A DNA stretch of 32,000 nt from an uncultured Methylococcaceae bacterium (GCA_903917345.1 CAIXAE010000036.1:43604-75603); one strand, 5' to 3'; numbered from the stretch's first letter, positions 1 to 28,327 are shown. The notes: a model not told the origin generated them from the sequence alone. A program made the numbers and translations.

Positions 1-1
1 C

Positions 2-766
2 TTTGGTATTGGTTACTATGGTTTTCTATTAAATCTAACGCATTGCATCAATACCCCCATCTGGCCTTTATTCATCCCTGGCATCTCATTAGTAATATCC
101 GCTTGGTTATACAGTTGTTTACTGAGATCAATACTGACAGGATTATGGTTAATGGCCTTATTAGTTTGGTGTGGCACACATCAAATCGGATCTTGTAACT
201 CTATTAACGATAATACGCATTTCGACAATATTACCCAGCCTATTATCAATAGCTTAGATCATGTCGCTGAAAATACCGTTAATTTACTTCCTGACAGTGA
301 CTCTGCACTCATCAATCAAATACCTAACAACAACTCGCACTTAATAACCATCGATCAAGCACTCAATAATCCAGAATTACTGAATGATTGTAAAAACCAT
401 TTATATCTTCCGAGTGCCACTGTATTTAATTTTGATCAAGATACGATTGAAGCTTCAATGGATACCAACTTAGAAAAATTAGTCAAAATTATTGAAAAAT
501 CTCCACCACAAAAAATCATTATTACCGGATATACAGACAGTTCTGGCGATGATACCCAAGAAGGCTTTAATCACAATATTGAATTAAGCCAAAACAGAGC
601 TAATGCTGTTGCAAACTGGTTAATAGAAAAAGGTAAAATAGCTCCCGAAAAAATAGATGCGCGTGGCGCGGGTAGTAAATTTCCACTCACTCATCTTGCT
701 GGGAAACAATCCTTAAATAGACGGGTTGAGATCAAACTAAACTATCCAAATTGCAAACCAGAATAA
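2..766 (+). CDS. OmpA/MotB-family peptidoglycan-binding protein; 5' end probably outside the window
   Basis: C-terminal OmpA_C-type motifs are present (IITGYTDSSGD ... NIELSQNRANAVANWL ... NRRVEIKL). Hand translation shows the frame of the 152-766 ORF stays open back to position 2. That upstream stretch encodes hydrophobic segments (..IWPLFIPGISLVISAWLY.. and ..LTGLWLMALLVW..), so M152 may be internal. There is a possible lipobox-like IGSC. Confidence 0.7.
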   Translation, partial: FGIGYYGFLLNLTHCINTPIWPLFIPGISLVISAWLYSCLLRSILTGLWLMALLVWCGTHQIGSCNSINDNTHFDNITQPIINSLDHVAENTVNLLPDSDSALINQIPNNNSHLITIDQALNNPELLNDCKNHLYLPSATVFNFDQDTIEASMDTNLEKLVKIIEKSPPQKIIITGYTDSSGDDTQEGFNHNIELSQNRANAVANWLIEKGKIAPEKIDARGAGSKFPLTHLAGKQSLNRRVEIKLNYPNCKPE

Positions 767-784
767 ATTATTTAAGACGTCTAT

Positions 785-1447
785 ATGCCTACATTTAAAT
801 ATCTTTTTAGTAAACCCAGTATAGTTTCTTGCAAAACTGAAAATACCGTTGTTTGCCATAATTTAGTGACTGCGATCAATATTGAAACATTAGGCTGGGG
901 ATGGTTAAAGATTAAAGCGAAAACTGAACCCAAGTGGCCAGATATCAAGAAATTTATTTCAGCATCAAATCAACATTTGACTGTAACTATCCCGCAAGAG
1001 AGAGAATTACAAATCACAATGTTTAACTGCTTTGGCATAGCAAAACTGATGATTAGGCCCATTAAAGCCCATAGTGAATTACATGAGATCATTGCACCGC
1101 AATATCCTATTTATAATAAAAATTTATTAAATGATATTAAGCCCCCCCAATATTCATCATTTAATAAAATGCAATTTTCATTACACAAGGTTAATCACAC
1201 ATTTAAAAACGCTAAAATCAGAAACTACGGCTTACCCAAAAACAACGTACTAAAAACAATTCAACTATCTAAGCAGTCAATACAGCTACCAAACAATAGA
1301 ATTAAATTAGGCCAATTAAAACTATTAAACACACCCATTTATCTCTTTAAGCCGCCCTTAAACTATCAGGGATTTACCAATACCTTAAAGCTCAACCCGA
1401 TTAAAATTTCGAATAAAATTGACACCACCTTTATTCAAAATGACTAA
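785..1447 (+). CDS. hypothetical protein (N/K/I-rich, no recognisable domain)
   Basis: 220-aa ORF, same strand as its neighbours, 18 nt after the OmpA-like stop and 44 nt before the next gene. No motif recognised. Confidence 0.4.
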   Translation: MPTFKYLFSKPSIVSCKTENTVVCHNLVTAINIETLGWGWLKIKAKTEPKWPDIKKFISASNQHLTVTIPQERELQITMFNCFGIAKLMIRPIKAHSELHEIIAPQYPIYNKNLLNDIKPPQYSSFNKMQFSLHKVNHTFKNAKIRNYGLPKNNVLKTIQLSKQSIQLPNNRIKLGQLKLLNTPIYLFKPPLNYQGFTNTLKLNPIKISNKIDTTFIQND

Positions 1448-1491
1448 ACCCACTACCTAAATTATTATTACTACTTTACGCGAGAATTATT

Positions 1492-2814
1492 ATGAGTTCA
1501 TTTGAGAATTACGACCCGCTCCACTTAGATCATTATGATTACAAACTAGAGTTACGCGGCATCAGAGGCGTAATTCGCAGAGCATTGTGGTTTGCTGCTG
1601 GCGGTGACATTAAACTCTTAGAACGCTGTCCACATTCAGAGCGAGTCAAATATGAAGGCTTAGGTGGCGTTGTTATGGCGACAGCTATTTTGGCATTTTT
1701 CTCAGGCTTTTTTGCAATGTATACCGTGTTTGGCCCAGTACAAACTTTAGCTAGCGCTCAAGATTTAGATACAAATGCAGCGATTAAATCTGCTGTTGTG
1801 GCGGCAATTTGGGCGTTAATCATTTTTAACCTCGATCGTTTTATTATCACCTCAACCGGTCACGGTGATGGCACTGAAGATATAACGGCTAAAGAACTAG
1901 TTCAAGGGTTACCAAGATTAGTTATGGCTGTAGTAATAGGCTTATCAATTTCAGCGCCTCTTGAAATTAGAGTGCTTAAAACCGAAATTGACGCAGCAAT
2001 AACATCTGAAAGGGATAAACGTGTAGAAGCGGATAAAATAGTAATAAATCAAGAGTTTGATCGTATCAAACAATTCAATGAAGAAAATTTACATAAAGAT
2101 GAAAAAAGACTCCAAGAACTAGACGAACATGAGGAAAAAATTCGACTAGAAATTAAAAAGCAAAGAGAAGAGTTAGATGCCGAAGAATCAGGTAAAGCAG
2201 GAAACAAGAAAAAAGGTAGGGGGAAAGGGTTCAATCAAAAGAAAGAAAATCTAGATAAAATGGAACTTGAAAATGCAGAAACTAAAAATAAATTAGATAT
2301 TCAACGACAAGAATTAAAAGTAAAAATAGAAGCCTCAAAAAATAATCTTGAAAATAATATTACCCTAAGAGATAAAAAAATAGATGATGCGATAATCAAA
2401 GAAAGTAAATTTGATGGGATATCCACAAGAATTAATTTAGCCCATGAAATATCACCCAACGTTTCAATAGCATTAACCTTATTGTTGGTTATTATAGAAA
2501 TCACCCCGATTTTTATAAAAATGATGTTAATTCGGGGGCCTTATGATTACTTAACAGATAACCAAAATAAAATTATATTAGCAAAATACGCTATAGAAAC
2601 ACTCCAAAAAGACCATAACGGTGACAATTCTGGCCACAGCATTGAAGACATTTACCATCAACCAAAGACTATCGAAAGTCATGTTATTGGTAACTTGACT
2701 GTTGAAAACCAACTGGCCGAAGAAGCTCGTGATATTTTTCTAAATACCGTAAAAGCAGATATGAATGCTGATCCAGAAAAATACATGCCAGACCTAAATA
2801 AACCCAAAGCCTAA
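1492..2814 (+). CDS. DUF4407-like membrane protein with a central highly charged coiled coil
   Basis: N-terminal signature WFAAGGDIKLLERCPHSERVKYEGLGG is followed by TM helices and NLDRFIITSTGHGDG. A long K/E-rich heptad region follows, then a C-terminal TM (ISIALTLLLVIIEITPIFIKMML). It is paralogous to 2841-4667 and 4664-5758. Confidence 0.7.
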   Translation: MSSFENYDPLHLDHYDYKLELRGIRGVIRRALWFAAGGDIKLLERCPHSERVKYEGLGGVVMATAILAFFSGFFAMYTVFGPVQTLASAQDLDTNAAIKSAVVAAIWALIIFNLDRFIITSTGHGDGTEDITAKELVQGLPRLVMAVVIGLSISAPLEIRVLKTEIDAAITSERDKRVEADKIVINQEFDRIKQFNEENLHKDEKRLQELDEHEEKIRLEIKKQREELDAEESGKAGNKKKGRGKGFNQKKENLDKMELENAETKNKLDIQRQELKVKIEASKNNLENNITLRDKKIDDAIIKESKFDGISTRINLAHEISPNVSIALTLLLVIIEITPIFIKMMLIRGPYDYLTDNQNKIILAKYAIETLQKDHNGDNSGHSIEDIYHQPKTIESHVIGNLTVENQLAEEARDIFLNTVKADMNADPEKYMPDLNKPKA

Positions 2815-2840
2815 CTTGATTACAACGAATAGGCTGTATC

Positions 2841-4667
2841 ATGTTTTCTGAGTTATGTGGTTTTAAGGCTCGCGAACTCTCTGCGTTGCCCACGGCAATA
2901 AAATACGCACTTGAAATAAAGAATCTATTAATTGTCGGTTCTTTATTATTTTGTGCGTATTCAGCTTTCTATTTATTCCAGCTAACATCACTCAACATAA
3001 CAACAGCTATTATCGTTACGTTATTCACTTTCGTTATATTGTTTAGCTTACAAAACTTGATTATTAGTGCCACTGGAATGGGTTGCGAGAAAGCCTACTC
3101 CACCAATAACTCCATCTGGCGGCCCGCCACCTTACGCCTTTATATTTTCTTTATTATTGCGTTAATTTTTTCACAGCCTTTGCTATTAGCTCTATATTCA
3201 CAAGTTTATAAAAGTGAGATTAATCAATCTTTCGAGGAACAACAAAAACTCAAGCAAGAATTCTTAGAAAACTCACTTAAAGAAAAAGAAGATAACCTCA
3301 GTTCTCAATTAGCCAATCAACATGAGATTTTAGAACGCCTAACAGGCATAAGAAATCCAAGTACAACAATCTTATCACCAGATCAAATTACATCAAACAC
3401 TACAACCCATGAGCTTAATGCTTCGCGTAGAAAAGCTTTATTAATCGGTAATCAAACATATCCAACTGCGCCACTTGTTAATCCAGATAAAGACGCGCAA
3501 GACATGTCTAATGCTCTTAAAGAAATTGGTTTTAGTACCGTATTAATAACCGATGGGACTAAAGCCACTATGGAAATGGAAATCAATAAATACATTGAAT
3601 CCATACATCCGGGTGACATCAGTTATTTTTATTACAGCGGCCATGGGATGCAACATCAGGGACAAAACTACATCATACCGATTGATACCCCACCTAAAAA
3701 CCCCATAGGGATAAATTTAATACTCGAAGGGATTAGCAAGAAAAATCCATCTGCCAGCGTTATTACTATTGATGCTTGTCGAACTTATGCGCAAGGCGAT
3801 AGTGGTGGGTTAGCCACTTTAGAGGCTGGATCCTCTACTTATATCTCATTAGCAGCAAAGCCCGGTCAAACAGCCAGCGATGGCTTCCCTCACACCAATG
3901 GTGTATATACAGGTGCAATATTAAAGCATATCAAAGAACCTACAGATATTGACGCTATATTTAGAAAAGTCATTGATGAGGTTACAAAAGCAACCCATAA
4001 CAAACAAGAGCCATGGGTTAATCACAACTTACACGGCACACTCATTTTATCAGCACCCGAATATAAACCAAACACAACACTTAACAACAGTCTACAAAAC
4101 AAACTATCACAAACTAACAACAATCAATTGCTATCTTGTGATCAAGAAGCTAATAAACTACCCCCCAATACTGTCAATGACTCTTTAATTAATTGTAATG
4201 AAAAAAAATTATTGCAACTTGAAGATCAATTAACCGCTCATAAACTTGCCAACCAAAAAGCCATTGCACAACTCAATGACGATATGCTGTACACCAACCC
4301 AATCGCTTATACACTGACATCTGATATTTATTATTTAAAAAGACATCCAACATTTTTAATATTAGGCACTATCGCCATTACAACTTTATTATTACTTGGT
4401 TTTTTAATGCGTGAAATCAAGTTTGCAGAAATGAGTGCTTATGAACAACTTTTAAATTATCACCATAGAAACTTTGTCTCTGAAAAATTTAGAGAGGCAA
4501 AACACGTAACCAGCCTGTTCCCCTATACACCGGATGAAGCTTTAAGAAACGCTCCATCGTCTTCCTATCAATACCATGATTCTAATGAAAACCACACACA
4601 AGAAGGCTTAGACTCTGCTAATTTTTTCTCTCATTTAAACAGCAAAACCTTTGGTGAAAGTATATGA
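2841..4667 (+). CDS. DUF4407-like membrane/coiled-coil protein with an inserted caspase-like (peptidase C14) domain
   Basis: The N-terminus parallels its neighbours (LCGFKARELSALPTAIKYALEIKN.., LQNLIISATGMG) and is followed by a coiled coil. A C14 core follows, with RKALLIGNQTY, His in YYSGHGMQ (H268) and Cys in TIDACRT (C313). A late TM is present (FLILGTIAITTLLLLGFLM). ATGA overlap with the next gene at 4664-4667. Confidence 0.8.
   Translation: MFSELCGFKARELSALPTAIKYALEIKNLLIVGSLLFCAYSAFYLFQLTSLNITTAIIVTLFTFVILFSLQNLIISATGMGCEKAYSTNNSIWRPATLRLYIFFIIALIFSQPLLLALYSQVYKSEINQSFEEQQKLKQEFLENSLKEKEDNLSSQLANQHEILERLTGIRNPSTTILSPDQITSNTTTHELNASRRKALLIGNQTYPTAPLVNPDKDAQDMSNALKEIGFSTVLITDGTKATMEMEINKYIESIHPGDISYFYYSGHGMQHQGQNYIIPIDTPPKNPIGINLILEGISKKNPSASVITIDACRTYAQGDSGGLATLEAGSSTYISLAAKPGQTASDGFPHTNGVYTGAILKHIKEPTDIDAIFRKVIDEVTKATHNKQEPWVNHNLHGTLILSAPEYKPNTTLNNSLQNKLSQTNNNQLLSCDQEANKLPPNTVNDSLINCNEKKLLQLEDQLTAHKLANQKAIAQLNDDMLYTNPIAYTLTSDIYYLKRHPTFLILGTIAITTLLLLGFLMREIKFAEMSAYEQLLNYHHRNFVSEKFREAKHVTSLFPYTPDEALRNAPSSSYQYHDSNENHTQEGLDSANFFSHLNSKTFGESI
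3423..4040 (+). other. caspase/metacaspase-like C14 catalytic domain within CDS 2841-4667
   Basis: His-Cys dyad motifs SGHG (His codon 3642-3644) and DACR (Cys codon 3777-3779) sit in the canonical order and spacing after the LLIGN strand. Confidence 0.7.
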
Positions 4668-5758
4668 ACACATTCACTCAATTTTTGTGCGAGTTTGGTG
4701 GTGCAGACCCGCAAATATTACGCACCTGCCCACCGCTAGAAATAGCTAAATATAAAAACCAAGGCTTATTAGTCTTTATGCTCGTATTAATTGCTCATGT
4801 CACTAGTATTTACTCTTTAATGCTGATCCATACCAGTTCAGTCGAATCCCCCCTTTCAACATTAAATGTATCCGATATTTTTAGCGCATTTTTTATGGGC
4901 TTTTGTTGGACTTTTATTGTCCATAACAGTTATCGTCTCATTTTAAGTTCAACCGGTTATGGTGATGGAAACTCCAAAATACGGACTAGAGAACTGTTGG
5001 CATCCATTCCTAAATTTTTACTTGCCACCGCAATAGGTCTATGTTCTGGTGCGACGATCACTGTTGTTGCTCTTCATACAGAAATGAATCTAGGACTATC
5101 AACCCAGCAGACATACTTATTAACTACATTAAATAAAAATATAGACCATAAATTTGCATCAAAACTCGATACTGTGTATCAAAAACAAGCAGATAGCATG
5201 GATAAAATAAGATATCTTCAAGCTAAGCAATCACAATATATAAAAAATAAAACCAATACAGAGGAAGAAAAATTAGCTATTACTAATCAAATAGATATCT
5301 TAAATAAAGAAACGGAACACTATACTAACGAACGAAAAAATATCCATGAAGAAATTAACCAGCTAAAATTGGTAAACGAAGCGCAAATAGTTAACTCAAT
5401 AGACTTTATTACGACTGTTGATAAAGCCATGGAGCGGCATTTATTGGCAACATTGTCTATTTTTAGCTTTACCCTATTAATTTATCTAGCCCCTCTTCTC
5501 ATTAGAATGATCTGGGCTAAAAATGCTTATGAATATCTAGTTGATTTCCAGAACTATAAACTACTGTCTAAATGCGGCATAGCCCCGAAAGCACATGAAA
5601 TTAAAATCGGCGATGAAAAAATATGCATCGACCGATTTACCATTGCTGAACAGATACTAGACGAAATGACCAGTCAACACGTCATATACAGAAAATACAA
5701 TGCTGAGAAACAACATCAATATTATTTAAATAAACAAAAATTAAGAAAAAATAATTAA
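4664..5758 (+). CDS. DUF4407-like membrane protein with coiled coil
   Basis: Motifs EFGGADPQILRTCPPLEIAKYKNQGL, TM helices, YRLILSSTGYGDG, a coiled coil, and a C-terminal TM (LSIFSFTLLIYLAPLLIRMIW). Start overlaps the upstream stop (ATGA). Confidence 0.7.
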   Translation: MNTFTQFLCEFGGADPQILRTCPPLEIAKYKNQGLLVFMLVLIAHVTSIYSLMLIHTSSVESPLSTLNVSDIFSAFFMGFCWTFIVHNSYRLILSSTGYGDGNSKIRTRELLASIPKFLLATAIGLCSGATITVVALHTEMNLGLSTQQTYLLTTLNKNIDHKFASKLDTVYQKQADSMDKIRYLQAKQSQYIKNKTNTEEEKLAITNQIDILNKETEHYTNERKNIHEEINQLKLVNEAQIVNSIDFITTVDKAMERHLLATLSIFSFTLLIYLAPLLIRMIWAKNAYEYLVDFQNYKLLSKCGIAPKAHEIKIGDEKICIDRFTIAEQILDEMTSQHVIYRKYNAEKQHQYYLNKQKLRKNN

Positions 5759-6298
5759 TCAAACTCGCTTAATCAAGATATGCTCAAAAACATCAGTATC
5801 ATTTGATTTAGCTTCTTTAAAATACCGAACCACTTGAGAGGTACCACCTGGTTTTTCGGCAGTATCACCGTCCCATAAAGCCATTAAAACATTGGCGTTA
5901 TTTGCCAAATAAATTGCTAGTTGTTGATAACATAAATCCCTATTCTCATCAGTCATTGGGGACAAACTAGGTAATGCTTCAACACTAACGGCATGCTTTA
6001 ATAAATTATAGAACTCATCTAGTGAGCTTTGTGTTTTAAAATCAGCAATATAATCAGACAATGCCATAGGCAATATCGCTTTAAATGGCACACCTAACTC
6101 AAGCGCAATCGCTACAGCTAAGCGATCAGCACCATCAGCAAGACCAGAAAGTAGGCATATTGACTTATCTTTGTATTGGTTTTGTATTTTTAATAATCGA
6201 TTGTTAATGTCGGCTTTTATTACCGGCAAATCATGAATACAAATAGCTCGATGACCTGTAATACCTATTTGTAGATCAAAATCAAATTTTGACTTCAT
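5759..6298 (-). CDS. SLOG-superfamily (LOG/DprA/YpsA-like Rossmannoid) protein
   Basis: Motifs IGITGHR, LSGLADGADRLAVAIA and a LOG-like KPGGTSQVV are present in the order expected for SLOG/LOG-fold proteins. ATGA overlap (6295-6298) with the upstream STAND gene. Confidence 0.6.
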   Translation of the reverse strand: MKSKFDFDLQIGITGHRAICIHDLPVIKADINNRLLKIQNQYKDKSICLLSGLADGADRLAVAIALELGVPFKAILPMALSDYIADFKTQSSLDEFYNLLKHAVSVEALPSLSPMTDENRDLCYQQLAIYLANNANVLMALWDGDTAEKPGGTSQVVRYFKEAKSNDTDVFEHILIKRV

Positions 6299-9200
6299 GT
6301 TAACTGCCTCTTTATCAGATCTTCTAACTTATCAAAGCAATCTATAGTATCCGGATGGACAGCACCCAAAACCTTTTCATGAATTGCTATGGCACGTCGA
6401 TATAGCATTTCCGCCTCAACATAATTCCCTTGATCAGATAACAATAATGCTAAATTTTCGACACTAATAACAGTATCAGGATGTTCATTTCCCAAAACTT
6501 GTTCACGTATTGAAAGCACAATACGACTTAAAGTTAGAGCTTCAGTGTAACTACCTTGTTCATAAAACAAACTAGCTAAATTGTTATAACTGGTTGCTAT
6601 ATCTGGATGACTTGTACCTAAAGAACTTTCATTGATTGCTAATACACGTCGATAAAATGATTCTGCAAGATCATAAGCACCCTGCGCCCATGATATAACC
6701 GCTAATGCATTAAGGCTTTGAACTAAATCTGGGTGATCTATACCAAATACATTTTCATGCATTCCTAACACACGGTTATAGTACATCTCTGCTTTTGCAT
6801 AGTCTTGCAAATAATATGATGCTTCAGCTAATAAATTAAGAGTTGGTGCTATGTGTAAATGATCACTACCTAAAACTCTTTCGTGTATTACCAATATTCG
6901 CTTAAAAAAACTTATTGCACTTTCAAAATCACCTTGATCATAAAATAACCCACCCAAATTATTAAGACTCATAATCGTATCGGGGTGCTCATAACCCAAA
7001 ACTTTTTCCCGTATCGCTAAAGTTTTACGATGCAACTCTTCTGAATCCGAATACATACCCTTATCAAATAACAAACTAGCTAAGTTGTTTAAACTCATAG
7101 CTGTGTGTGGATGCTCAGAACCGAGTACTTTTTCACTTATCAATAATGAACGATGATAAAGATCTTCTGCTTCTAAAAAATTTCCTTTATGGTGCAATAA
7201 AAGACCTAAGTTATTAAGGCTTGTTGAAATTTCAATGTGATCTCTACCCAATACCTTTTCATAAACTGAAATTGCTAGACGATAAAAAGCTTCTGACTCA
7301 TCGTAATTTCCTTGATTAAACATTACTAAAGCTAAGTTATTAAGACTAATAGCAGTCATGGGATCTTCTGGCCCCAATACATCTTGACGTATTTTCAACA
7401 CCTGACGATGAAGTACCTCTGCGTTATCGTAGTTACCTTGATCACGTAGAGTTTCAGCCAGATTATGAAGGCTAATAACCATATCAGGGTTATTAGCCCC
7501 TAATAATTTTTCACGTATATTTAGTGACTGACGATGTATTGACTCAGCATCCCCATAGTTGCCTTGTTTGCGTAACATCTCACCTAAACTGTTAAGACAA
7601 GTAGCAATATCAGCATGATCACCACCTAATATCTCTTCAGTAATTGCCAGCGAACGTCGATAAAGTGTTTCTGCCACTTTTAACCTAACAAATCTATTTG
7701 TAAAAAAATAGCCTAAATTAAAAAGTGTAAATGCTAACAACCCAGTATCTACAATATTTTCTGCCTCCCACTTTTCTAACGCCTCTAGGTAACACTGGCC
7801 TGGATCGTATTGATCACCCATTACCAACCAATAACCCAATAACGCCAAATCATCTTTTTCATATAGAATTGAAAACAGGGGTATAGCACTAATACAATCC
7901 TTTAAGGACTCCCATTGCTCGGCTTGTTGCCATTGCCACGGCAACTCTTCTGCTACACGACTACTTAATTCTTGATTATTAAAGTAGTGAGCTAATTTGA
8001 TATGTGCATTAGATTCCGCCTCTTTATTATTAAAACAATAGTGCTTAACTGCTAGCCTTAAGTATTCATGAAAAAAGTTTAATAAGCTCCCTCGTTTTGC
8101 TAGATGCGTATCAATCGCCATTAAAAATGTAGAAATACTCAATCGACTTAAACCAGTAATGCCGGCTATTTCTGTTTCAGATAGCCCGCGCCTAGCTGCC
8201 CACAGGGCTTGCATAATTTGGATAACGATAGCTTTACCAAAATCTTTCTCTAAGCGCTCTAGCACTAAGACGAATAATTCTTGGGGATTGTTGGCCGTTA
8301 ATAAGGCATCAATGCGCTGATCTAAGTGTTCAAAGTATCCAAAGATACGCAACTCTTCTAATACTGTTTTTAAAAACAGAGGGCTCCCTGTTTGAGGCGC
8401 TTGTGCAATGCATCGTGTTTGTTGAATCGATAAAGCTTTGCGATAAGTCGCCAACCAATCACGGATTAATTGCTCTTTACGTTTTACATCCAGCGCTTCT
8501 AAAGTATGAATAGGCCAGTTTCGTTGACTTAATAACTCTAATTGATCGCCAGGAATAACACTAAAAATAGCCGTTACATTTTCCTGCCAAAAAGTAGGTA
8601 GCCATAGGCACTCTTTGCTTTCTAATTGATTAATGCCATCAATAATCAACAACAAAGGATCTTGCTCACTTACTTTTGCCAACCATAAGGGAAAATCTCT
8701 AATCACATCTTCAGGAGTACTGGGTAAATCTTGCCCATCATTTAAACGATGTTTTATTTCAGACATTATCCGGTACACAATAGCCACTGGATCAACATCA
8801 CCCGATATACCGATATAATGTTCAATGATAAATTGCTTAGGATTTGCAAGGCGTTGTTGACTGACCCAGTAAGCCAGCAAAGCCGACTTACCTGATCCAG
8901 ACTCACCTGTCACTAATAAAGCATGATTTGTTTTAGCCTGTAAAAAAGTATCTAACGCTTCAATATCTCTAGGATTCGCACTATAAGCATGGCAACGCTC
9001 AATTGCATAGCTACGATGAGCATCTTGTGCGGCCTTAAACGGTGTAGGTGTTTGGTCTAGTGGAAACTGCTTATCTAAAACGGCTAATAAATCAACTTTA
9101 ATTAACTCACCTAGTGCTTCTATACTGATGTAATTATCTCTAACAGGTAAACCACTACTGCGTAGCCTTGTTTTAAGCGTTGCTAATTTAGCTTTTAGTG

Positions 9201-9714
9201 GAGACTCTGTTTCAAAGTAATCATTAGACGCATTAAACTGGTCAGCTAATGATTGACTGAGTGCGGCGTCTCTTAAATAAAAGAAGCAGTGTTCAGCCAT
9301 ATCAGGGTTATCTAATACCCCATGTAAGATTTCCATCTCTGTGACACTTAAGCCGGCTTTTAAACTGTCTTCTAAGAAAGGAAATAAGCTGAGTAATTCT
9401 GCTTTATGATCTAAATCGGTATCTAAGGGTGCCCAACCATAGCGATCGCCTAATAAACTAACAAAGTAAGGTCGGCAGCGATTAATCTCTTCAAGACAAA
9501 TCCGAAGCACTTTGCCTTGTTCAGCTTCTTCTTGTGTGACACCCCAGCGCAAATCAATTTCTGTAAACTCTACCTGCCTATCACGACAAGCACGACGAAC
9601 AACAGGAAACACGTGACTCATTAAATAATGCCGCTCCTCTTGCATATCCCGAAAAGTTGAGGAGATAAAGACGCGTATTTCGCGATTAGTGTTGGTTTGA
9701 TGTGTATCTGTCAT
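6295..9714 (-). CDS. DUF4062 (TIR-like)-NACHT/STAND NTPase-TPR protein
   Basis: N-terminus IRVFISSTFRDMQEERHYL...FVSLLGDRYGW is DUF4062-type. Walker A is LLVTGESGSGKSALLAYW. The C-terminus has 11 diverged 42-aa kinesin-light-chain-type TPR units (..LG.xHPDT..SLNNLA..). Confidence 0.85.
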   Translation of the reverse strand: MTDTHQTNTNREIRVFISSTFRDMQEERHYLMSHVFPVVRRACRDRQVEFTEIDLRWGVTQEEAEQGKVLRICLEEINRCRPYFVSLLGDRYGWAPLDTDLDHKAELLSLFPFLEDSLKAGLSVTEMEILHGVLDNPDMAEHCFFYLRDAALSQSLADQFNASNDYFETESPLKAKLATLKTRLRSSGLPVRDNYISIEALGELIKVDLLAVLDKQFPLDQTPTPFKAAQDAHRSYAIERCHAYSANPRDIEALDTFLQAKTNHALLVTGESGSGKSALLAYWVSQQRLANPKQFIIEHYIGISGDVDPVAIVYRIMSEIKHRLNDGQDLPSTPEDVIRDFPLWLAKVSEQDPLLLIIDGINQLESKECLWLPTFWQENVTAIFSVIPGDQLELLSQRNWPIHTLEALDVKRKEQLIRDWLATYRKALSIQQTRCIAQAPQTGSPLFLKTVLEELRIFGYFEHLDQRIDALLTANNPQELFVLVLERLEKDFGKAIVIQIMQALWAARRGLSETEIAGITGLSRLSISTFLMAIDTHLAKRGSLLNFFHEYLRLAVKHYCFNNKEAESNAHIKLAHYFNNQELSSRVAEELPWQWQQAEQWESLKDCISAIPLFSILYEKDDLALLGYWLVMGDQYDPGQCYLEALEKWEAENIVDTGLLAFTLFNLGYFFTNRFVRLKVAETLYRRSLAITEEILGGDHADIATCLNSLGEMLRKQGNYGDAESIHRQSLNIREKLLGANNPDMVISLHNLAETLRDQGNYDNAEVLHRQVLKIRQDVLGPEDPMTAISLNNLALVMFNQGNYDESEAFYRLAISVYEKVLGRDHIEISTSLNNLGLLLHHKGNFLEAEDLYHRSLLISEKVLGSEHPHTAMSLNNLASLLFDKGMYSDSEELHRKTLAIREKVLGYEHPDTIMSLNNLGGLFYDQGDFESAISFFKRILVIHERVLGSDHLHIAPTLNLLAEASYYLQDYAKAEMYYNRVLGMHENVFGIDHPDLVQSLNALAVISWAQGAYDLAESFYRRVLAINESSLGTSHPDIATSYNNLASLFYEQGSYTEALTLSRIVLSIREQVLGNEHPDTVISVENLALLLSDQGNYVEAEMLYRRAIAIHEKVLGAVHPDTIDCFDKLEDLIKRQLT

Positions 9715-9761: not shown

Positions 9762-10013
9762 GTGGCGTTAAAATTTTCTAATAAAGCTTATGACCGAGGC
9801 AGTGAGTACGCCCATTTTCGTAAAATTGCTTCATTACGAGAATATCTATTGGTCGCACAAGACCAGCCTAACATCGAACGCTATGTGCGACAAGGCTACG
9901 TTTGGATATTATCAGAAGTAACGGGAATTGAGGCCACCATGTCATTAGATAGCATCGACTGCATGCTTAGTTTACGTGAGGTTTATGACAAGGTTATGGA
10001 TGATTTTGATTAA
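9762..10013 (+). pseudogene. C-terminal fragment of a Uma2-family (DUF820) endonuclease
   Basis: 83 codons starting at GTG. DRGSEYAHFRKIASLREYLLVAQDQPNIERYVRQ matches the C-terminal half of Uma2 proteins (D..K..Y...EY.LV.Q....E.Y). The N-terminal half is absent. Confidence 0.5.
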
Positions 10014-10175: not shown

Positions 10176-10673
10176 ATGAGTTTTCAAGAAAAAATAAATT
10201 TATATATTGCAGATGGTTACAAAAAAACAATAACAAATCAGTCTGGACTTGACACCTATGTTATGTATAAAAACAACATAGTCGTTCGCATTGGGTCAGA
10301 TAGTTCCTATGACCATTATGCAAAGCTTATTAAAAGTAAAATAATTCAATCTAAAAATGCACCTATAATCACTAAACATGAAACTGTTTTGAATGTATTT
10401 GATAACACAAAGTTAGACTATACCTGCACCGAAATGGAACTACTGAATGAACTGAATGATGATGAGGCGACACGTTATAAGGAATGGATTGACAAAGAAA
10501 TAAATAATATTGTAGATAAAAAACTTGGTATAAGTGACCCTTTCAAAATTTTAGATTTAACACGTAAATTAGTTTTATATGCTCAAAAAAACAATCTTTT
10601 TCTTGATTTAGTGCAGTCTAAAAATATCATGAAGAGAGGTGAAACTTTTGTACACATCGATCCTTTCTCTTAA
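10176..10673 (+). CDS. hypothetical protein
   Basis: 165-aa ORF in a very AT-rich context. No secure domain recognised. Confidence 0.4.
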   Translation: MSFQEKINLYIADGYKKTITNQSGLDTYVMYKNNIVVRIGSDSSYDHYAKLIKSKIIQSKNAPIITKHETVLNVFDNTKLDYTCTEMELLNELNDDEATRYKEWIDKEINNIVDKKLGISDPFKILDLTRKLVLYAQKNNLFLDLVQSKNIMKRGETFVHIDPFS

Positions 10674-10834: not shown

Positions 10835-11431
10835 TTAACCATATATTTCGTCTACATTGCATGATTTGACGATAGAAAAAACTTCGTGTTTTTTATCGTA
10901 AACCACTCTTTGGAACACTCCGTTCAGACATTGAAAAAAATCATAAGCTGGAAAACATGAATATAATTCTTTATCTTCAAGCTCTATTACATTTGTATCA
11001 ATACCAAATTGAATTGGTTTTGTAAAAAACAAACCTAAGACCCAGTATGTATGAACATATATTTCGTTATAAGTCACTCGATTTGTAATAGCATTATAAA
11101 GTTCAAGTGGCGATGCCACATTGCCTGATTTTCGTGCTTGCTCCCTTAATACAGGTGTAGAACCGGTATCGTTAGGTGACGCAAGTGTAATTGATTCTGA
11201 AGTTCTGGGAGCTAAGATTACACCAAAATTTCCAGTGTAATTATTTACCGGCTGATCTCCACAGACAATTGTTGAACAGGAAATGTCATAATTTCCCGTA
11301 ATAACTTTGCAAATTTTTTCAATCGATCCTAATTGATTAGTTTGAGCATTGCCAACCAGTGAAACATAACTTGAACAATGCACTAAAACAGCATTATTTT
11401 TTTTCAATACATCGATATATGAAGTAGGCAT
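10835..11431 (-). CDS. hypothetical protein
   Basis: 198-aa ORF, 58 nt downstream of the Cys-rich ORF on the same strand. No domain recognised. Confidence 0.45.
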   Translation of the reverse strand: MPTSYIDVLKKNNAVLVHCSSYVSLVGNAQTNQLGSIEKICKVITGNYDISCSTIVCGDQPVNNYTGNFGVILAPRTSESITLASPNDTGSTPVLREQARKSGNVASPLELYNAITNRVTYNEIYVHTYWVLGLFFTKPIQFGIDTNVIELEDKELYSCFPAYDFFQCLNGVFQRVVYDKKHEVFSIVKSCNVDEIYG

Positions 11432-12222: not shown

Positions 12223-14910
12223 TCAAACGACTCGCATATCTTTTTGAAGATCTCTTAAATTCTCCAAGCAAAGCTTAGTATCAGGATGATCAGGCCCCAA
12301 CCCATGTTCAACAATGGCCAAAGCTCGAAGATAAAGCGGCTCCGCAGCATCATAATCACCTTTATTGTTAAGCAATACTGCGAGATTGTTTAAATAAGTA
12401 CCCGTTTTAGGATGATCAGGCCCCAACGCATTTTCAGTAATCATCAAGGCTCGACGACAGAGGTTTTCTGCTGCAGCATAATCACCTTTATCTTTAAAAA
12501 ATGTTGCGAGATTATTTAAATAAGTACCCGTTTTTGGATGATCGAGCCCTAATGCCTGTTCTGCAATCGCCAAGGCTCTACGAAATAGCGGCTCTGCGAC
12601 ATCATAATCACCTTTTTCATGAAGCAATAATGCGAGATTGTTTAAAGAAGTACCTGTTTCAGGATGATCAGGGCCCAGCGCTTGTTCTGCAATCGCCAAT
12701 GCTCGACGACAGAGGTTTTCTGCTGCAGCATAATCACCTTTTTCATGAAGCAATACTGCGAGATTGCTTAAAGAAGTGCCCGTATCAGGATGATCAGGAC
12801 CCAACGCTTGTTCTGCAATCGCCAAGGCTCGACGATAAAGTGGTTCTGCGACATCATAATCCCCTTGATCTTGAAGCAATGATGCGAGATTGTTTAAACG
12901 AGTACTCATATCAGGATGATCAGTTCCCAAGGCCTGTTCTGTAATCACCAAGGCTCTGCGAAAAAGAGGCTCTGCATTATCATAATCACCTTTTTTAGCA
13001 AAATACTGTAAATATTGCGCTAAGTTACTTAAAGTCACAGCCGTATATTCATGCTCTACCCCATAACATAACTCACTTAACCTGACGCCAAACCATCCCC
13101 AAGACTCTTGTTGCTCATGCTTAAGATAAGGTAATGTTCTTAGGTCTACTAGTTTTTCGATATTCTCACTGTATTTATCAACCGCCTCTTGATCAATGAT
13201 TTTTAAAAGCGCTTCATCCGACCACTGCTTTAATTGCTCTGGCAATTCCAACGCCATAAAGCTATCTAGGCAACTGACTAAATCCTCTGTCTGGGTAAAC
13301 TGCTCCCACAACACTTTACCTAACACCTCATGACCCTTTTCAACTTCTACAAAGTAATCAGCCCCGGCACTCTTCTCATCCAACAACCAATCTTGCAAGC
13401 TCTTATGAAACAGTGCAACGCCTTGCTCAGTAACGGTCAGGTAACTACCCAAGCGCTCAAGCACTTTAGAGCGTTGGCGTTTACTGTAATTTAATAAGGT
13501 TTCTATATCGCTGGTGGGAATAGGACGTGAAGATGCAACTAATATTTCCAATACCGGTAATAACTCTTGCTCATAATTATGGGTATCAGGGTATCGGTAT
13601 TTAAATTCACTTAAATACAAAGCACTCAAGCCTTTGGGCAGATCATTCAACTGTGTTATGTCGATTATATTTTGTTGAATGGCGGCTTGTAATTGCCTTA
13701 CATATAAAAAGTTACCTTGTGCGGCTGTTAATATCTGCTGTTGTGCATGGATTAAATCAGTTTGTTCTAAGCCTAAAGTGGGCAACCAATGTTGGATATA
13801 CGTTTTAACATCTTCTTGATTCCGCGGATCATCCGCGTTAATGTCATGCAGTCCAAATTGTTCTAATTGCCCACGAATTCCGGATTCTGGCCGACTAGTG
13901 ACCACCCACCCTAACCAATCGGGTAACTTGCTTAGCTGTGAGGCTATTAATTCCGTCAGTTCACTTTGACCGTTTTGTAAGGTTTCATCGAGCGCATCAA
14001 TAACAATCAATTGTCTGGGGCGATTGCCATTAATGGCATAGCGTAAAGGATTGGCTAATAAATAATCAAACAGATCCACTGGGTTCTTGCGGTCTAGGTC
14101 TTTTATTTCTGGTTGATTGAGCAGATGCCGACGATAGTCAGGTAAACGAGTCGCTAATTGAAAAGCAATCGAACGAATCACCCGTGTGGGGTCTCTGCGC
14201 TCAGGACTGTTATAACGACAAAATTGTGCCGCGATCACTTGGGCTTTATTGATGTGTGCCAGCCATGCTACCACCGCACTTTTGCCCATGCCTGGGCCAC
14301 CACTTAAACAAAAAATACGTGAACTTCTGTCACCTTCTCGCCAGATATTAATTTCATCCAGTAACCATTGCCGTCCGGTAAAGCCTGGCAAACGACTATT
14401 AATATCAGGGGTACAATCTAAGGGTAACAAGTACTCTTCAAGTTGACTAATCTCTCCAGCAAAACGTTGGTTATCAGGATGATCAATCACCGCACAGATT
14501 TGTGTAAAGCGCTCGGCGTACCAGACTTCAAAAGCATCTGGATCGCTTTGTTGACGCGCTTGCCAGTCGTGCATATCTAACCATTGCAAATGGCTCACCG
14601 ATATCGGCAGACTGACATCGACTTCGGGTTGAACCAGAATCGTAAAGACATAAGCTTTGCCGGCACCTAAGGCGATAGCGATTTCATCCCTACATACACC
14701 AGGATCACGGGTGGAATGCTCTGATAAAAAAGCCAGCACTTGATCACTCTCAATAATTCCTTCGGTGACTTCGCGTCGCCAATCGTCACCAAATTCAATA
14801 CGCTCACGATCTAACCAGACCTCATGACCTAAGTGGGCAAGATCGGTTTTAATCCGTAAGACTAAAGCTTCTGCGGCATTATCATGGCCGTAACTGAGGA
14901 AGATTTTCAT
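12223..14910 (-). CDS. TIR-STAND (NACHT/NB-ARC-like) NTPase-TPR protein
   Basis: The N-terminal TIR reads MKIFLSYGHDN..VWLDRERIEFGDDW..VLAFLS..CRDEIAIAL, with a candidate catalytic Glu. Walker A is FCLSGGPGMGKSAVVAWL and Walker B-like is LIVIDALDE. There are six near-identical 42-aa TPR units at the C-terminus. Confidence 0.9.
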   Translation of the reverse strand: MKIFLSYGHDNAAEALVLRIKTDLAHLGHEVWLDRERIEFGDDWRREVTEGIIESDQVLAFLSEHSTRDPGVCRDEIAIALGAGKAYVFTILVQPEVDVSLPISVSHLQWLDMHDWQARQQSDPDAFEVWYAERFTQICAVIDHPDNQRFAGEISQLEEYLLPLDCTPDINSRLPGFTGRQWLLDEINIWREGDRSSRIFCLSGGPGMGKSAVVAWLAHINKAQVIAAQFCRYNSPERRDPTRVIRSIAFQLATRLPDYRRHLLNQPEIKDLDRKNPVDLFDYLLANPLRYAINGNRPRQLIVIDALDETLQNGQSELTELIASQLSKLPDWLGWVVTSRPESGIRGQLEQFGLHDINADDPRNQEDVKTYIQHWLPTLGLEQTDLIHAQQQILTAAQGNFLYVRQLQAAIQQNIIDITQLNDLPKGLSALYLSEFKYRYPDTHNYEQELLPVLEILVASSRPIPTSDIETLLNYSKRQRSKVLERLGSYLTVTEQGVALFHKSLQDWLLDEKSAGADYFVEVEKGHEVLGKVLWEQFTQTEDLVSCLDSFMALELPEQLKQWSDEALLKIIDQEAVDKYSENIEKLVDLRTLPYLKHEQQESWGWFGVRLSELCYGVEHEYTAVTLSNLAQYLQYFAKKGDYDNAEPLFRRALVITEQALGTDHPDMSTRLNNLASLLQDQGDYDVAEPLYRRALAIAEQALGPDHPDTGTSLSNLAVLLHEKGDYAAAENLCRRALAIAEQALGPDHPETGTSLNNLALLLHEKGDYDVAEPLFRRALAIAEQALGLDHPKTGTYLNNLATFFKDKGDYAAAENLCRRALMITENALGPDHPKTGTYLNNLAVLLNNKGDYDAAEPLYLRALAIVEHGLGPDHPDTKLCLENLRDLQKDMRVV
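12240..13010 (-). repeat. tandem 126-bp (42-codon) TPR-coding repeats with a 252-bp higher-order unit
   Basis: The anchor aggatgatcagg (with variants) recurs at 12283, 12409, 12535, 12661, 12787 and 12913, exactly 126 bp apart. A 41-nt identical block sits at 12449-12489 and 12701-12741. Confidence 0.85.
14506..14910 (-). other. TIR domain of CDS 12223-14910
   Basis: The FLSYGH start strand, the W..E motifs and the conserved Glu in CRDEIAIA fall within the first ~135 residues. Confidence 0.75.
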
Positions 14911-16655
14911 GTGTTTGTGTCGGTTGCTATCATTAAATTAATGGCTTTTAACAAATGCGGAATATTTTGAATACTTTGCCTATCTTTTAGCTTTTCATCA
15001 GCGGGTAAGTCATCAAAATCCACTAAGCACGGATGAAATAACATTTTATTGTTTCTGATGGGAGCATATTTCCACCCAGCCAATCGTTTTTGGGCACACC
15101 ATCGCGCATGTTCTAAACGTTGTAAAATATTTAACTCTAATTCGGAAAAAACAAATGTCGGTGCATCTGGGTTGAGAGGCACTAATTTTCGACCAATCGC
15201 TCTTAATTTAATATCAATATGCGCGGCGGCATAACGATTGGAATCGCGTATAGACTCATCTAAATATGGCCAGGCTTCATTGATAGACGCAGCTGGATTT
15301 TTGTCTAAATAATCTTGATGAATAACTTGCGCCATCTGGTCTTTAGCATATTCAATTAAGCGTAAGACATCTCTATCTTGATCATCACCAACGTTATTCG
15401 CCTTATTTGAAAAGAGTGGGACAACCTGAATTTTCTTGTTATGTTGATTAAATTCTTGAAGTAAACTGCCGCCCGGTGGATCAACGACAACAATATTGTA
15501 AGACAAGCCGGCTTTTGAGCGTGCGATATCAATTTTCTTAGCAGAAATCACGTTACTGATTTCATTTTTAGTACAGATATAAACACAGCTAGGTTGATTA
15601 CTATCCCCAAATAACCTATCAATTTCAGGTTCTGGTAATTGATCAATACTGTTTTCTATTAATTTTATGTCTAACAACTCCAAGAATGCAGGATGGCGTT
15701 TAATTAACTGTTGATATTGCTGTTCAGCGTTAGCGTCAATAACCGTAATTTTTGGTTTATGGCCTCCACGATAATGGCCTAGTTGGGCCAAGTAAAATAA
15801 TACACTTTGGCCAATACTACCTAAGCCGATTAAAACCAAACGTATTTGCACATCATCTTGAGTCGCTATGCCACTATCAGGTGGATAATCATCTAGCATT
15901 TTTCTAGCGGTCAGCTCTATCTGATTAACAAAGCTGACTTTAACGACATCTTCAGGACTAAAGAAATCGACTGTCGATAAATTATGTTTAAGGTTGATAT
16001 CAGGCACATTGCATAAACATCTTAAAGTACTATCTTGCCCAGTGATTTTTAACGCTAACTTACACAGCGAAATATTATGTGCATAATCATCATTAAACGC
16101 TAATAAGCTGTGAGCTTTATTAATATGAGAGACTTCTAGGTTATGACTGTCATCACCCTTAGACAGAATAATAATGACACCATTTTTTCTAAGTAAAGAA
16201 ACATTGGCATCATCTAAAGAACTATCCGCTATTAGCACTACTTTTGTAGTCGACGCTAACACCACAGATGCCGCTACGGCGATATCATTTGAGCCATACA
16301 CAATAATGTGATTATTCAAAAACATTGACATGAAGCGATCTACGGTAAACCCCATTTGTCTTAAATAAACATGAATAATACTGGCCGCGATTGTTATCTG
16401 AATCAGCGCCGCCGACAAATTAACCAGAAAGGGGTCATCGCCATCCAAACTGAGTGTTGTACAAATGATGGTATAGATACTTTTACCTATACTAAAAAAA
16501 ATCGATTCATTTTCTACAGCATCTAGGTTTTTCCAAACAGCCAGAACAAAAACAATACCGGTTAATTTCCATAATCGAGTTACAAAGTTAGAGGCTAACC
16601 ATTCCAAAAGGTTATGTAAAATTGAGGACTTCTTGTTATCTGATACGGTGTGCAT
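14907..16655 (-). CDS. membrane protein: 2-TM channel-like N-terminus, two Rossmann (KTN/RCK-like) domains, C-terminal RyR domain
   Basis: The N-terminus has TM1 (LTGIVFVLAVW), a pore-loop-like SIYTIICTTLSLDGDDPF and TM2 (LSAALIQITIAASIIHVYL). The two Rossmann segments are IIVYGSNDIAVAAS and LVLIGLGSIGQSV. The RyR-domain signature is LEHARWCAQKRLAGWKYAP..FHPCLVDFDDLPADEKLKDRQSIQNIP. ATGA overlap with the TIR-STAND gene. Confidence 0.7.
   Translation of the reverse strand: MHTVSDNKKSSILHNLLEWLASNFVTRLWKLTGIVFVLAVWKNLDAVENESIFFSIGKSIYTIICTTLSLDGDDPFLVNLSAALIQITIAASIIHVYLRQMGFTVDRFMSMFLNNHIIVYGSNDIAVAASVVLASTTKVVLIADSSLDDANVSLLRKNGVIIILSKGDDSHNLEVSHINKAHSLLAFNDDYAHNISLCKLALKITGQDSTLRCLCNVPDINLKHNLSTVDFFSPEDVVKVSFVNQIELTARKMLDDYPPDSGIATQDDVQIRLVLIGLGSIGQSVLFYLAQLGHYRGGHKPKITVIDANAEQQYQQLIKRHPAFLELLDIKLIENSIDQLPEPEIDRLFGDSNQPSCVYICTKNEISNVISAKKIDIARSKAGLSYNIVVVDPPGGSLLQEFNQHNKKIQVVPLFSNKANNVGDDQDRDVLRLIEYAKDQMAQVIHQDYLDKNPAASINEAWPYLDESIRDSNRYAAAHIDIKLRAIGRKLVPLNPDAPTFVFSELELNILQRLEHARWCAQKRLAGWKYAPIRNNKMLFHPCLVDFDDLPADEKLKDRQSIQNIPHLLKAINLMIATDTNT
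14937..15143 (-). other. RyR (ryanodine-receptor repeat, PF02026-like) domain
   Basis: The pattern E-H-x-R-W...GW-x-Y...hP-x-LV-x-[FY]-x-x-LP-x-x-EK-x-x-DR is typical of bacterial RyR domains. Confidence 0.65.
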
Positions 16656-16664
16656 TTATTAATC

Positions 16665-20277: not shown

Positions 20278-20291
20278 TAATACTTCCCCTC

Positions 20292-20519
20292 TTAATCGTC
20301 AAACAAAGGAGGAGTCAATACACAACGAGTTCCATTATTTGCCAAGGGCGTCACAATGCCCCGCGCCTCCATCTCCTCCACAATGAGTGCCGCGCGGTTG
20401 TAACCTATTTTAAATTCACGCTGTACCGCAGATATTGAAGCTCTACGTGATCGGGTAACAAATAATACTGCGGCTTCGTATAAAGGATCGTTTTCGGAGT
20501 GAGTTTCAGTTGTTGTCAT
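20292..20519 (-). CDS. stand-alone FtsK-gamma-domain winged-helix protein
   Basis: [48 protein letters not shown] closely parallels the FtsK/SpoIIIE gamma domain (DpLy.eAv.fV......S.S.lQR...IGYNRAAr....mE..GiV.p). It lies 14 nt upstream of the MTase-like gene. Confidence 0.75.
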
Positions 20520-20570
20520 ATCAATGCCTGTTAATTAATTAAAGAAATTGTTCAGACAGCACTATAACAA

Positions 20571-20656
20571 ATCAAAACGACAAATCGCGTCGTCTTTAAC
20601 TCTATTTTCTATGAATTAATTTTTTAGTGTTATTCGACTTAGTTTGTCGTTTTGAT
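20571..20656. promoter_or_regulatory. 14-bp perfect inverted repeat (candidate operator pair) in a divergent promoter region
   Basis: atcaaaacgacaaa at 20571-20584 and its exact reverse complement tttgtcgttttgat at 20643-20656, separated by 58 bp. The pair lies between the divergent FtsK-gamma and phosphatase genes. Confidence 0.5.
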
Positions 20657-28325: not shown

Positions 28326-28327
28326 GC

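Follow-up and report, generated by a model that had tools for sequence, protein, structure and literature searches.

What does a small, soluble SLOG protein contribute when its gene is joined through overlapping stop and start codons to that of a large STAND sensor carrying a NADase-family head? This question is raised by two genes at positions 5759-9714 of a 32,000-nucleotide stretch of DNA from an uncultured Methylococcaceae bacterium (GCA_903917345.1, CAIXAE010000036.1:43604-75603), the whole of which is referred to here as the window. The first gene (6295-9714, reverse strand) encodes a 1139-residue protein in which open reading frame (ORF) and Pfam analysis identify a DUF4062 head, a P-loop NTPase of probable NACHT type and 11 TPR units, an NPHP3/TEP1-type architecture. 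The second (5759-6298, reverse strand) encodes a 179-residue, stand-alone, YpsA-like SLOG protein that structural modelling, Foldseek and profile searches point to as a pore-less derivative of a SLOG-SLATT family. On balance, we consider it probable that the pair is a two-gene coupled immune-type module of a Thoeris-like kind, consisting of a combined sensor and NADase and of a receptor for an ADP-ribose-type ligand whose membrane effector has been lost.

A STAND gene and a SLOG gene overlap at an ATGA

Both ORFs listed in a preliminary description of this DNA are present exactly where it placed them, and their stop/start overlap can be read directly from the sequence. In the ATGA at 6295-6298 (reverse strand; junction CAG TTA ACA TGA AGT), the TGA of the 1139-residue gene overlaps the ATG of the 179-residue gene, an arrangement expected to couple their translation. 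The same ATGA overlap is found at locus L092, and the corresponding genes of locus L016 overlap by 4 nt. Chance is excluded as the source of the ORFs, domains and motifs of the two proteins. A promoter and terminator scan returned fewer sites than were obtained from shuffled sequences. Both genes lie within a conflict island that occupies approximately the first 24 kb of the window; the best homologues come from Methylobacter and other Methylococcaceae, and a metagenome scan with the N-terminus of the STAND protein matched one locus, the source of which was a lake hypolimnion. Together with genes of C1-transfer type near the right end of the window, these matches make a methanotrophic gammaproteobacterium, probably Methylococcales-like, the likely host.

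The STAND protein carries a DUF4062 head on a probable NACHT-TPR scaffold

The DUF4062 (NIR) head, a TIR-like domain of the NADase type, covers residues 11-189 of the STAND protein (9148-9684, reverse strand). Pfam PF13271 (DUF4062) matches residues 14-98 with an E-value of 7.7e-14 and a score of 52.1 bits against a gathering cut-off of 24.7, and a phmmer comparison aligned residues 11-189 with the TIR-like domain of human TEP1 (PDB 11gz, chain 11gz_A) with an E-value of 7.1e-24 and similarity at the 45% level. Within this alignment the motif S123-V-T-E126-M-E128 coincides with the SVTEME of TEP1, making E126 and E128 candidates for the catalytic glutamate, and the motif is retained in seven of eight SLOG-linked DUF4062 homologues. 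The Pfam models TIR, TIR_2 and ThsB_TIR did not match the STAND protein.

Osinski et al. have reported that DUF4062 is a TIR-like NADase that cleaves NAD+, giving ADP-ribose plus nicotinamide, with catalytic glutamates at E97 of KpSwz and E1008 of TEP1, and that it forms the basis of Swarozyc, a one-gene abortive-infection system (bioRxiv 10.64898/2026.05.01.722283). The same authors note that DUF4062 adjoins a NACHT ATPase in human NWD1, NWD2, TEP1 and NPHP3, and that some DUF4062 proteins share operons with other enzymes (10.64898/2026.05.01.722283). Ibarra-Chavez et al. have described the one-gene Evangelion family, in which the putative catalytic glutamate lies in an 'acidic-SYT' region (E87 of Eva01; 10.64898/2026.06.25.731849). 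NAD+ hydrolysis has been demonstrated for KpSwz, TEP1 and Eva01 (10.64898/2026.05.01.722283; 10.64898/2026.06.25.731849), and by family membership the head of the window's protein would be a NADase as well, its activity being taken from these other members of DUF4062. The preliminary description had called DUF4062 a TIR-like domain, which holds but can now be amended, as experimentally the domain is a NADase that makes ADP-ribose and is sufficient as a single-gene effector. SLOG is not mentioned in the texts of either of these two preprints; it is the gene context that would suggest a signalling role for the domain.

The head is followed by a P-loop NTPase module of probable NACHT type (approximately residues 251-560; 8035-8964, reverse strand), assigned from its Pfam scores, a Walker A motif (GESGSGKS, residue 270) and a Walker B motif (LLIIDG, residue 355). 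The Pfam NACHT model scores 21.7 bits against a cut-off of 26.7 and AAA_22 scores 27.6 bits against 27.0; in the L016 orthologue, which is 53% identical, NACHT is above its cut-off at 29.4 bits and NPHP3_hel and HTH_NWD1 match weakly. Searching the NTPase module against PDB sequences gave no match at E<=0.01. A TPR array (6298-7737, reverse strand), the presumed sensor, consists of eleven LGxxHPxT-type units with an exact period of 42 residues (residues 696-1116) and is matched by Pfam TPR_10 (E 2.4e-125), TPR_NPHP3 (E 2.6e-91) and, also very strongly, TPR_12. The DUF4062 N-terminus, GESGSGKS P-loop and 11 KLC-type TPRs read earlier from the sequence were all recovered by Pfam and by motif position. 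The order DUF4062, NACHT, TPR is that of NPHP3-type proteins, and full-length homologues with 64% (L012 and L015), 53% (L016), 37% (L074), 31% (L046) and 30% (L032) identity were found. No Avs or bNACHT model in PADLOC was matched by the STAND protein.

The small protein is predicted to adopt a SLOG fold of the YpsA branch

The three motifs on which the preliminary description had based its SLOG-like assignment, GITGHR, GLADGADRLA and KPGGTS, could be placed at residues 12, 52 and 149 of the 179-residue protein. The assignment itself was borne out by structure, curated Pfam SLOG models remaining below threshold on this protein (YAcAr, 21.9 versus 28.2 bits; DprA, 19.3 versus 29.6 bits). An AlphaFold model was obtained with a predicted local distance difference test score of 88.5 and a predicted template modelling score of 0.85, and its top Foldseek match in the PDB was YpsA (2nx2; E 2.6e-8, TM-score 0.72) at a sequence identity of about 18%, followed by ShosA, DprA, the LOG-like TM1055 and a Moco carrier protein, with TRPM2/8, LOG and ThsA matching more weakly. 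As the matches of the model are essentially the SLOG superfamily, the SLOG fold is confirmed at the level of modelling, and the protein is predicted to have a Rossmannoid SLOG fold of the YpsA branch. Fold comparison alone was informative here: PDB sequence searches with the small protein and with its family profile found nothing meaningful, no NCBIfam model matched it, and the PADLOC ShosA model (E 2e-4) and the E1-E2 models matched weakly. Many stand-alone SLOG proteins of phages also resemble the model in Foldseek.

The GxD/E signature of the YpsA clade, of which GxD is described as a substrate-binding signature (PMC6459960), is present as G56-A57-D58 and is invariant, and further invariant polar residues (H16, R17, D58, R59, D86, D143 and T153) map to typical active-site loops. 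The protein is acidic, with an isoelectric point of 5.5 and a net charge of -4. Two more specific assignments were rejected. A LOG-type nucleotide N-glycosidase would carry PGGxGTxxE, where this protein has KPGGTSQVVR and its family the consensus GGTSQVV, without the glutamate; and membership of ShosA is contradicted by the length of 179 residues, the absence of a SAM domain, the isoelectric point and the DUF4062-STAND partner.

The SLOG protein is a pore-less member of a SLOG-SLATT family

A word-indexed homologue search with the small protein returned 19 relatives, a scan of GTDB genomes 477, and a profile search of 1.84 billion representatives 10,163 clusters, of which 2,216 scored at E<=1e-30. 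Nearly all family members are 560-620 residues long, with the SLOG domain at the N-terminus and a C-terminus that contains about three to five hydrophobic transmembrane helices and matches Pfam DUF4231, SLATT_1 and SLATT_3. On account of these DUF4231/SLATT matches, the usual form of the family is a SLOG-4TM SLATT protein of about 580 residues. The SLOG domain of the window is a clear member (profile E 1e-85) and contains the family motifs GxTGHR, GADRL, ALWDG and GGT. The label 'stand-alone SLOG' given to it in the preliminary description is therefore accurate for the window, although standing alone is not the native form of a family that is normally a SLOG-4TM SLATT fusion. Full-length SLOG-SLATT proteins are not covered by any PADLOC model, and the SLOG(-SLATT) family appears to be without a Pfam, NCBIfam or PADLOC model of its own.

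Comparison with the fused members revealed where the window's protein has been shortened. It ends at residue 179, three residues past the last conserved SLOG motif, and has no transmembrane segment. Of 37 SLOG columns that are at least 90% conserved among 55 fusions it retains 33, including every invariant one, while none of the 28 columns conserved in the membrane part is present. A profile of the SLATT region found no SLATT-like ORF in the 32-kb window, and a 124-residue gene that follows SLOG in relatives, considered as a possible SLATT remnant, proved to encode a lipoprotein with an LTGC lipobox. The sequences thus indicate that the lineage of the window lost the pore domain by clean deletion at the domain boundary. 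The SLOG gene has a ratio of non-synonymous to synonymous substitution rates (dN/dS) of 0.22-0.33 across lineages that are about 60% identical, indicating purifying selection, and in a neighbour-joining tree without support values stand-alone SLOGs branch from among the fused forms in no fewer than two to three different places. Repeated origins and purifying selection together indicate that the pore-less SLOG is a recurrent, selected state and not the product of simple decay.

Other pore-less members stand in different surroundings. At L006 (6559-11351) a TIR-FGE-sulfatase gene is followed by a stand-alone SLOG of 225 residues, a divergent SLOG-SLATT protein of 508 residues and a patatin gene; in both L006 and L008 the pore-less SLOG lies between the TIR-FGE-sulfatase gene and a pore-bearing SLOG-SLATT paralogue, the two SLOG forms sharing one operon. 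L091 (6998-11638), from an Aminicenantes metagenome-assembled genome (MAG), encodes a 165-residue stand-alone SLOG, a 423-residue soluble helical protein and a 965-residue DUF4062 protein with a different NTPase, and seems to be a case in which a SLOG without a pore arose independently beside a DUF4062 gene.

The SLOG family is linked to TIR-type and DUF4062 genes

Neighbouring genes were counted at the 80 best genome loci of the SLOG family. By Pfam, TIR_2 occurs in 9 of the 54 adjoining same-strand genes upstream and in 11 of the 47 downstream, and DUF4062 in one upstream and two downstream, so that a TIR or DUF4062 gene is directly adjacent at 23 of the 80 loci. With iterated profiles built for this analysis, for which the only check of specificity was against the Pfam adjacency counts (both give 23 adjacent genes), a TIR-like gene lies within 5 kb at 54 of the 80.

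Large DUF4062-bearing proteins adjoin the SLOG family at seven loci: L012, L015 and L016 from Methylococcaceae, L074 from Thiotrichales, L046 from Ignavibacteriota, L032 from Natronincola (Clostridia) and L091, whose DUF4062 protein resembles the STAND protein of the window in its head alone. The expectation in the preliminary description that the pairing would be conserved elsewhere was therefore correct, as members of the SLOG family stand beside DUF4062-STAND homologues in several phyla. The two-gene module is conserved at L092, a 98% identical relative with the same layout as the window, and at L016, from a Methylococcus MAG (Methylococcus sp. UBA6136, contig DIVI01000198.1), where the end of the STAND gene runs into a SLOG-SLATT gene; the SLOG domain encoded there and that of the window are 47% identical. 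The L016 pair is orthologous to the window's pair, with the SLATT pore still attached. A second SLATT-type 4TM gene lies just upstream of the STAND gene in L016 and L095.

A further arrangement recurs in Gammaproteobacteria MAGs (L021, L025, L041, L050, L068 and L086), in which an approximately 800-residue protein without a Pfam match and a SLOG-SLATT protein of about 600 residues are followed downstream by a TIR-TPR protein of 727-741 residues.

The gene upstream of SLOG varies within the window's clade

The close relatives of the window's SLOG form a SLOG-only clade in which the upstream gene differs from locus to locus. in L003 and L093, TIR-TPR proteins with ThsB_TIR/TIR_2 heads, 614 and 758 residues long, are encoded upstream of SLOG; L094 has a DUF4062-NACHT gene that is 81% identical to that of the window and from which the TPR array has been deleted; and in L001 and L002 the last 29 codons of a TIR-TPR gene are left upstream of SLOG. 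These comparisons indicate that the TIR-like gene upstream of SLOG occupies a slot of variable content, where heads of the canonical TIR and DUF4062 types can replace one another, and this interchange is the strongest argument that both would supply SLOG with input of one kind. A Uma2 gene marks the slot's upstream border and is oriented divergently in L003, L001/L002, L093, L094 and the window, that is, wherever this flank is on the contig. In the window it is truncated to an 83-residue ORF (9762-10013, forward strand; 87% identical to Uma2 of L003) that corresponds to the C-terminal 81 residues (112-192) of the 192-residue Uma2 that is intact in relatives such as L003.

On its other side, SLOG adjoins an envelope/caspase block, which occurs in either of two orientations, in six of six contexts of the clade. 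The window's copy of the block (1-5758, forward strand) comprises by Pfam an OmpA C-terminus, a 220-residue gene, a DUF4407 gene (440 residues), a DUF4407-caspase gene (608 residues) and a further DUF4407 gene (364 residues); in relatives it consists of a lipoprotein, OmpA, an approximately 206-residue gene and three DUF4407 genes, one with a caspase domain. It is syntenic with the block of L003 at 60-81% identity, is inverted relative to SLOG, and abuts SLOG tail-to-tail in the window. A DUF4407 profile found no match at 80 distant SLOG loci, from which it follows that the DUF4407-SLOG link is clade-specific. A functional link between the block and SLOG is possible.

At the junction of block and SLOG (5756-5761) the forward-strand DUF4407 gene and the reverse-strand SLOG gene converge with a 0-nt spacer, the TAA of the former ending at 5758 and the TGA of the latter occupying 5759-5761; any terminator must hence sit within the gene on the other strand, and overlapping transcripts would result. 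At L001 (8891-13863) the block is extended by a DUF4407-DnaJ fusion and a papain-like peptidase. DUF4407 has the look of an invariant scaffold to which different effectors are added; the literature searched contained no account of a DUF4407 system of this kind.

A proposed Thoeris-like module with a soluble receptor

We propose that the 11 TPRs recognise a trigger, that the NACHT-type NTPase would then drive oligomerisation, and that the oligomer would bring the N-terminal DUF4062 heads together, resulting in NAD+ cleavage. The soluble YpsA-type SLOG would bind the ADP-ribose-type product of the head. The pair would derive from a widespread system composed of a TIR-like generator and a SLOG-4TM (SLATT) pore, in the ancestral form of which the ligand on SLOG would open the SLATT pore. 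With the pore domain deleted, NAD+ depletion by the head would be the sole killing activity encoded in cis, and the retained SLOG most likely regulates by binding a ligand, whether as a threshold-setting buffer or by relaying the signal to an effector whose gene lies elsewhere. Both the binding of the head's product by SLOG and the effect of that binding are putative. A role as effector or as LOG-type enzyme is less likely than one as regulator. Regulation is favoured over catalysis because the LOG catalytic glutamate is absent and the fused sensors have the same conserved residues, and over a DprA/ShosA-like role because the protein is acidic, lacks a SAM domain and belongs to a family that partners with TIR-type genes.

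Several observations weigh against this proposal. The characterised DUF4062 proteins are single-gene NAD+ depleters that yield plain ADP-ribose, and when 'SLOG and 4TM' systems were tested in E. coli, no defence was seen (Yirmiya et al.). The aspartate that follows the GHR dyad, which is 95% conserved in fused members, is an alanine at residue 18 of the window's protein (nt 6245-6247), and this position is non-acidic throughout its SLOG-only clade; the change may have shifted the ligand or the activity. SLOG is intact where the upstream TIR-like gene has been deleted (L001/L002) or its TPR array lost (L094), which implies that SLOG is not strictly dependent on its partner in cis. Finally, four sampled DUF4062-NACHT-TPR relatives included none with a SLOG neighbour, one with a SLATT-type neighbour and two that looked solitary, and because the reverse association is this much weaker, pairing with SLOG is a trait of a subset of the STAND family.

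Alternatively, the STAND protein would work alone as a NADase sensor, in the manner of Avs, Swarozyc or Evangelion, and SLOG would be the leftover of a broken SLOG-SLATT effector, with no role in the module. DUF4062 systems do act as single genes, the SLATT part is gone, the sampled relatives L097 and L098 have no partner, and in L001 and L094 the TIR-like partner was lost while the island persisted. A functionless leftover is difficult to reconcile with a dN/dS of 0.22-0.33 in lineages about 60% identical, with a clean truncation just past the last SLOG motif that kept 33 of 37 conserved positions, with ATGA coupling kept in both the window and L092, or with the origin of stand-alone SLOGs at least two to three times, once beside an intact SLOG-SLATT (L006/L008). 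We therefore regard this explanation as unlikely.

Two explanations that give SLOG an active role are each improbable, and about equally so. In one, SLOG would be an enzyme that hydrolyses or remodels the product of the head, for example at the ribosyl-adenine bond of ADP-ribose or cyclic ADP-ribose (cADPR), and so would serve as an off-switch or modifier comparable to ring nucleases. The invariant polar residues at typical active-site loops are consistent with catalysis, as is the resemblance of the model to many stand-alone SLOGs of phages; SLOGs of the LOG clade are N-glycosidases, and degradation of cADPR-type signals is the activity predicted for viral YpsA-like SLOGs (PMC9503650). The window's protein has KPGGTSQVVR without a glutamate in place of the LOG motif, however, the same residues are conserved in fused forms where they are best read as part of a pore sensor, and a catalytic member of the YpsA clade was not found in the literature searched.

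In the other, SLOG would be a constant receptor that relays ADP-ribose-type signals from interchangeable TIR-like sensors to the lipoprotein, OmpA, DUF4407 and DUF4407-caspase genes. SLOG remains beside this block in all six contexts of the clade, whichever way the block is oriented and even though the sensor upstream changes or disappears, and in type IV Thoeris N7-cADPR made by a TIR activates a caspase-like protease. The six contexts are nevertheless all close relatives, with block proteins 60-81% identical, so that the linkage is explained by common descent; none of the 80 distant SLOG loci has DUF4407; and because the genes converge with a 0-nt spacer, the block is not co-transcribed with SLOG in the window.

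It is very improbable that SLOG is a DprA/ShosA-like DNA-binding antitoxin that counters damage by its partner as ShosA does for ShosT: ShosA, a type IV antitoxin (PMC11961720), and DprA do make up Foldseek matches 2-10 (ShosA as 8zva) and are weakly matched by PADLOC ShosA and Pfam DprA, but ShosA needs a large positive surface whereas this protein has a net charge of -4 and a pI of 5.5, no SAM domain is present, the best structural match is YpsA, and the family is fused to membrane SLATT domains and neighbours TIR-type genes, not phosphoribosyltransferases.

Relation to known systems

Read as a coupled generator and receptor, the pair resembles Thoeris, in which a TIR-family generator is encoded beside a SLOG sensor and/or a SLATT effector. 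The SLOG domain of ThsA (SIR2-SLOG, type I Thoeris) senses cADPR isomers and binds 3'cADPR, the SLATT effector ThsH of type VII Thoeris responds to cADPR, and Yirmiya et al. predicted 'SLOG and 4TM' and 'SLOG Patatin' as Thoeris effectors, having discarded Avs-type TIRs from their screen; neither candidate protected E. coli. The full-length relatives of the window's SLOG fit 'SLOG and 4TM'. The generator of the window differs in being a DUF4062 domain on a STAND scaffold, and two features that define Thoeris, a canonical TIR and an effector domain on the partner, are lacking in the pair, for which any signal is putative; neither Pfam nor the model gave the SLOG protein a second, toxic output domain.

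The head domain and its SxTExE motif are common to Swarozyc KpSwz, Evangelion Eva01 and human TEP1, and the window's copy lies in a defence island. In Swarozyc and Evangelion a single gene encodes the head together with a C-terminus that is helical or 'AUX', whereas the head of the window is mounted on a NACHT-TPR STAND that is coupled to a SLOG gene. Its likeness to nephrocystin-3 (NPHP3), NWD1 and TEP1, in which DUF4062 stands beside a NACHT ATPase followed by repeats, is one of domain order as judged from sequence, and homologues of the window's STAND are named 'nephrocystin-3' by JGI; unlike human NPHP3, the protein is bacterial and shares an operon with a SLOG partner. With Avs and other bacterial NLR-like STANDs it has in common the tripartite layout of effector head, NTPase and repeat sensor, and oligomerisation would be expected; unlike Avs, its head is DUF4062 and a nucleotide-binding-type (SLOG) partner lies downstream. 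The SLOG protein is similar to B. subtilis YpsA and to phage YspA/DUF2493 in size, in standing alone, in its GxD motif and in fold (TM-score 0.72). YpsA acts in cell division with GpsB, while the family of the window's SLOG is defined by its own motifs and by SLATT fusion. YpsA-clade SLOGs have been implicated in NAD/ADP-ribose-related conflict systems (PMC6459960; PMC9503650).

The module is not categorically new, as TIR with SLOG, TIR with SLATT, and 'SLOG and 4TM' have already been described or predicted. DUF4062 was recognised as a TIR-like NADase in 2026, solely as a single-gene NAD+-depleting effector, and the cross-phylum linkage of NPHP3-like DUF4062-NACHT-TPR proteins to SLOG(-SLATT) proteins offers a testable case for DUF4062 feeding a receptor, as TIR does in Thoeris. 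More tentatively, and in our view possible rather than probable, STAND-mounted DUF4062 heads in general may be second-messenger generators as well as NAD+ depleters, whose ADP-ribose-type product is read by a SLOG family that normally gates a SLATT pore, with the pore-freed receptor of the window perhaps serving several interchangeable sensors. If this were true, bacteria would have an equivalent of the plant pathway in which TIR-NLR signalling passes through a small-molecule receptor to a channel, and in humans the DUF4062 heads of NPHP3, NWD1 and TEP1 might by analogy supply ADP-ribose-sensing SLOG modules such as that of TRPM2. The searches also define a family of about 10,000 clusters, for the whole of which the soluble, pore-less SLOG is a simple protein with which to find the ligand.

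Other genes of the window

A second operon (12223-17564, reverse strand) encodes a Ser/Thr kinase (299 residues), a TrkA_N and RyR protein (582 residues) and a TIR_2-NPHP3_N/NACHT-TPR protein (895 residues), the TrkA_N/RyR and TIR-STAND genes being joined by an ATGA overlap at 14907-14910. The preliminary description had ascribed the same layout to this operon and to the DUF4062-SLOG pair. This holds in a loose sense: the operon does contain an ATGA-coupled partner of a TIR-STAND, but the partner is a 582-residue TrkA_N/RyR protein that lies upstream and is preceded by a kinase gene. Orthologues of the operon, 66-74% identical, occur near SLOG in L001, L003 and L094. On the opposite strand, a 147-residue ORF (12501-12944, forward strand) with a repetitive translation is antisense to the part of the TIR-NACHT-TPR gene that encodes its TPR array and is most likely an artefact of the repeats.

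Between the Uma2 remnant and this operon are ORFs of 165 residues (10176-10673, forward strand) and 198 residues (10835-11431, reverse strand) for which there was no convincing family match; as they are 99% and 92% identical to ORFs of L094, they are real, conserved genes. Genes for an N6 DNA methylase (378 residues), a calcineurin-like phosphoesterase (289 residues) and a 754-residue protein with two AAA domains (19141-23898) may be further defence genes. The region at 25503-30748 contains Hydantoinase_A-like, ATP-grasp_3, His_biosynth-like (HisA-like), CitG-like and RimK-like genes, types that occur in the tetrahydromethanopterin/C1-transfer clusters of methylotrophs.

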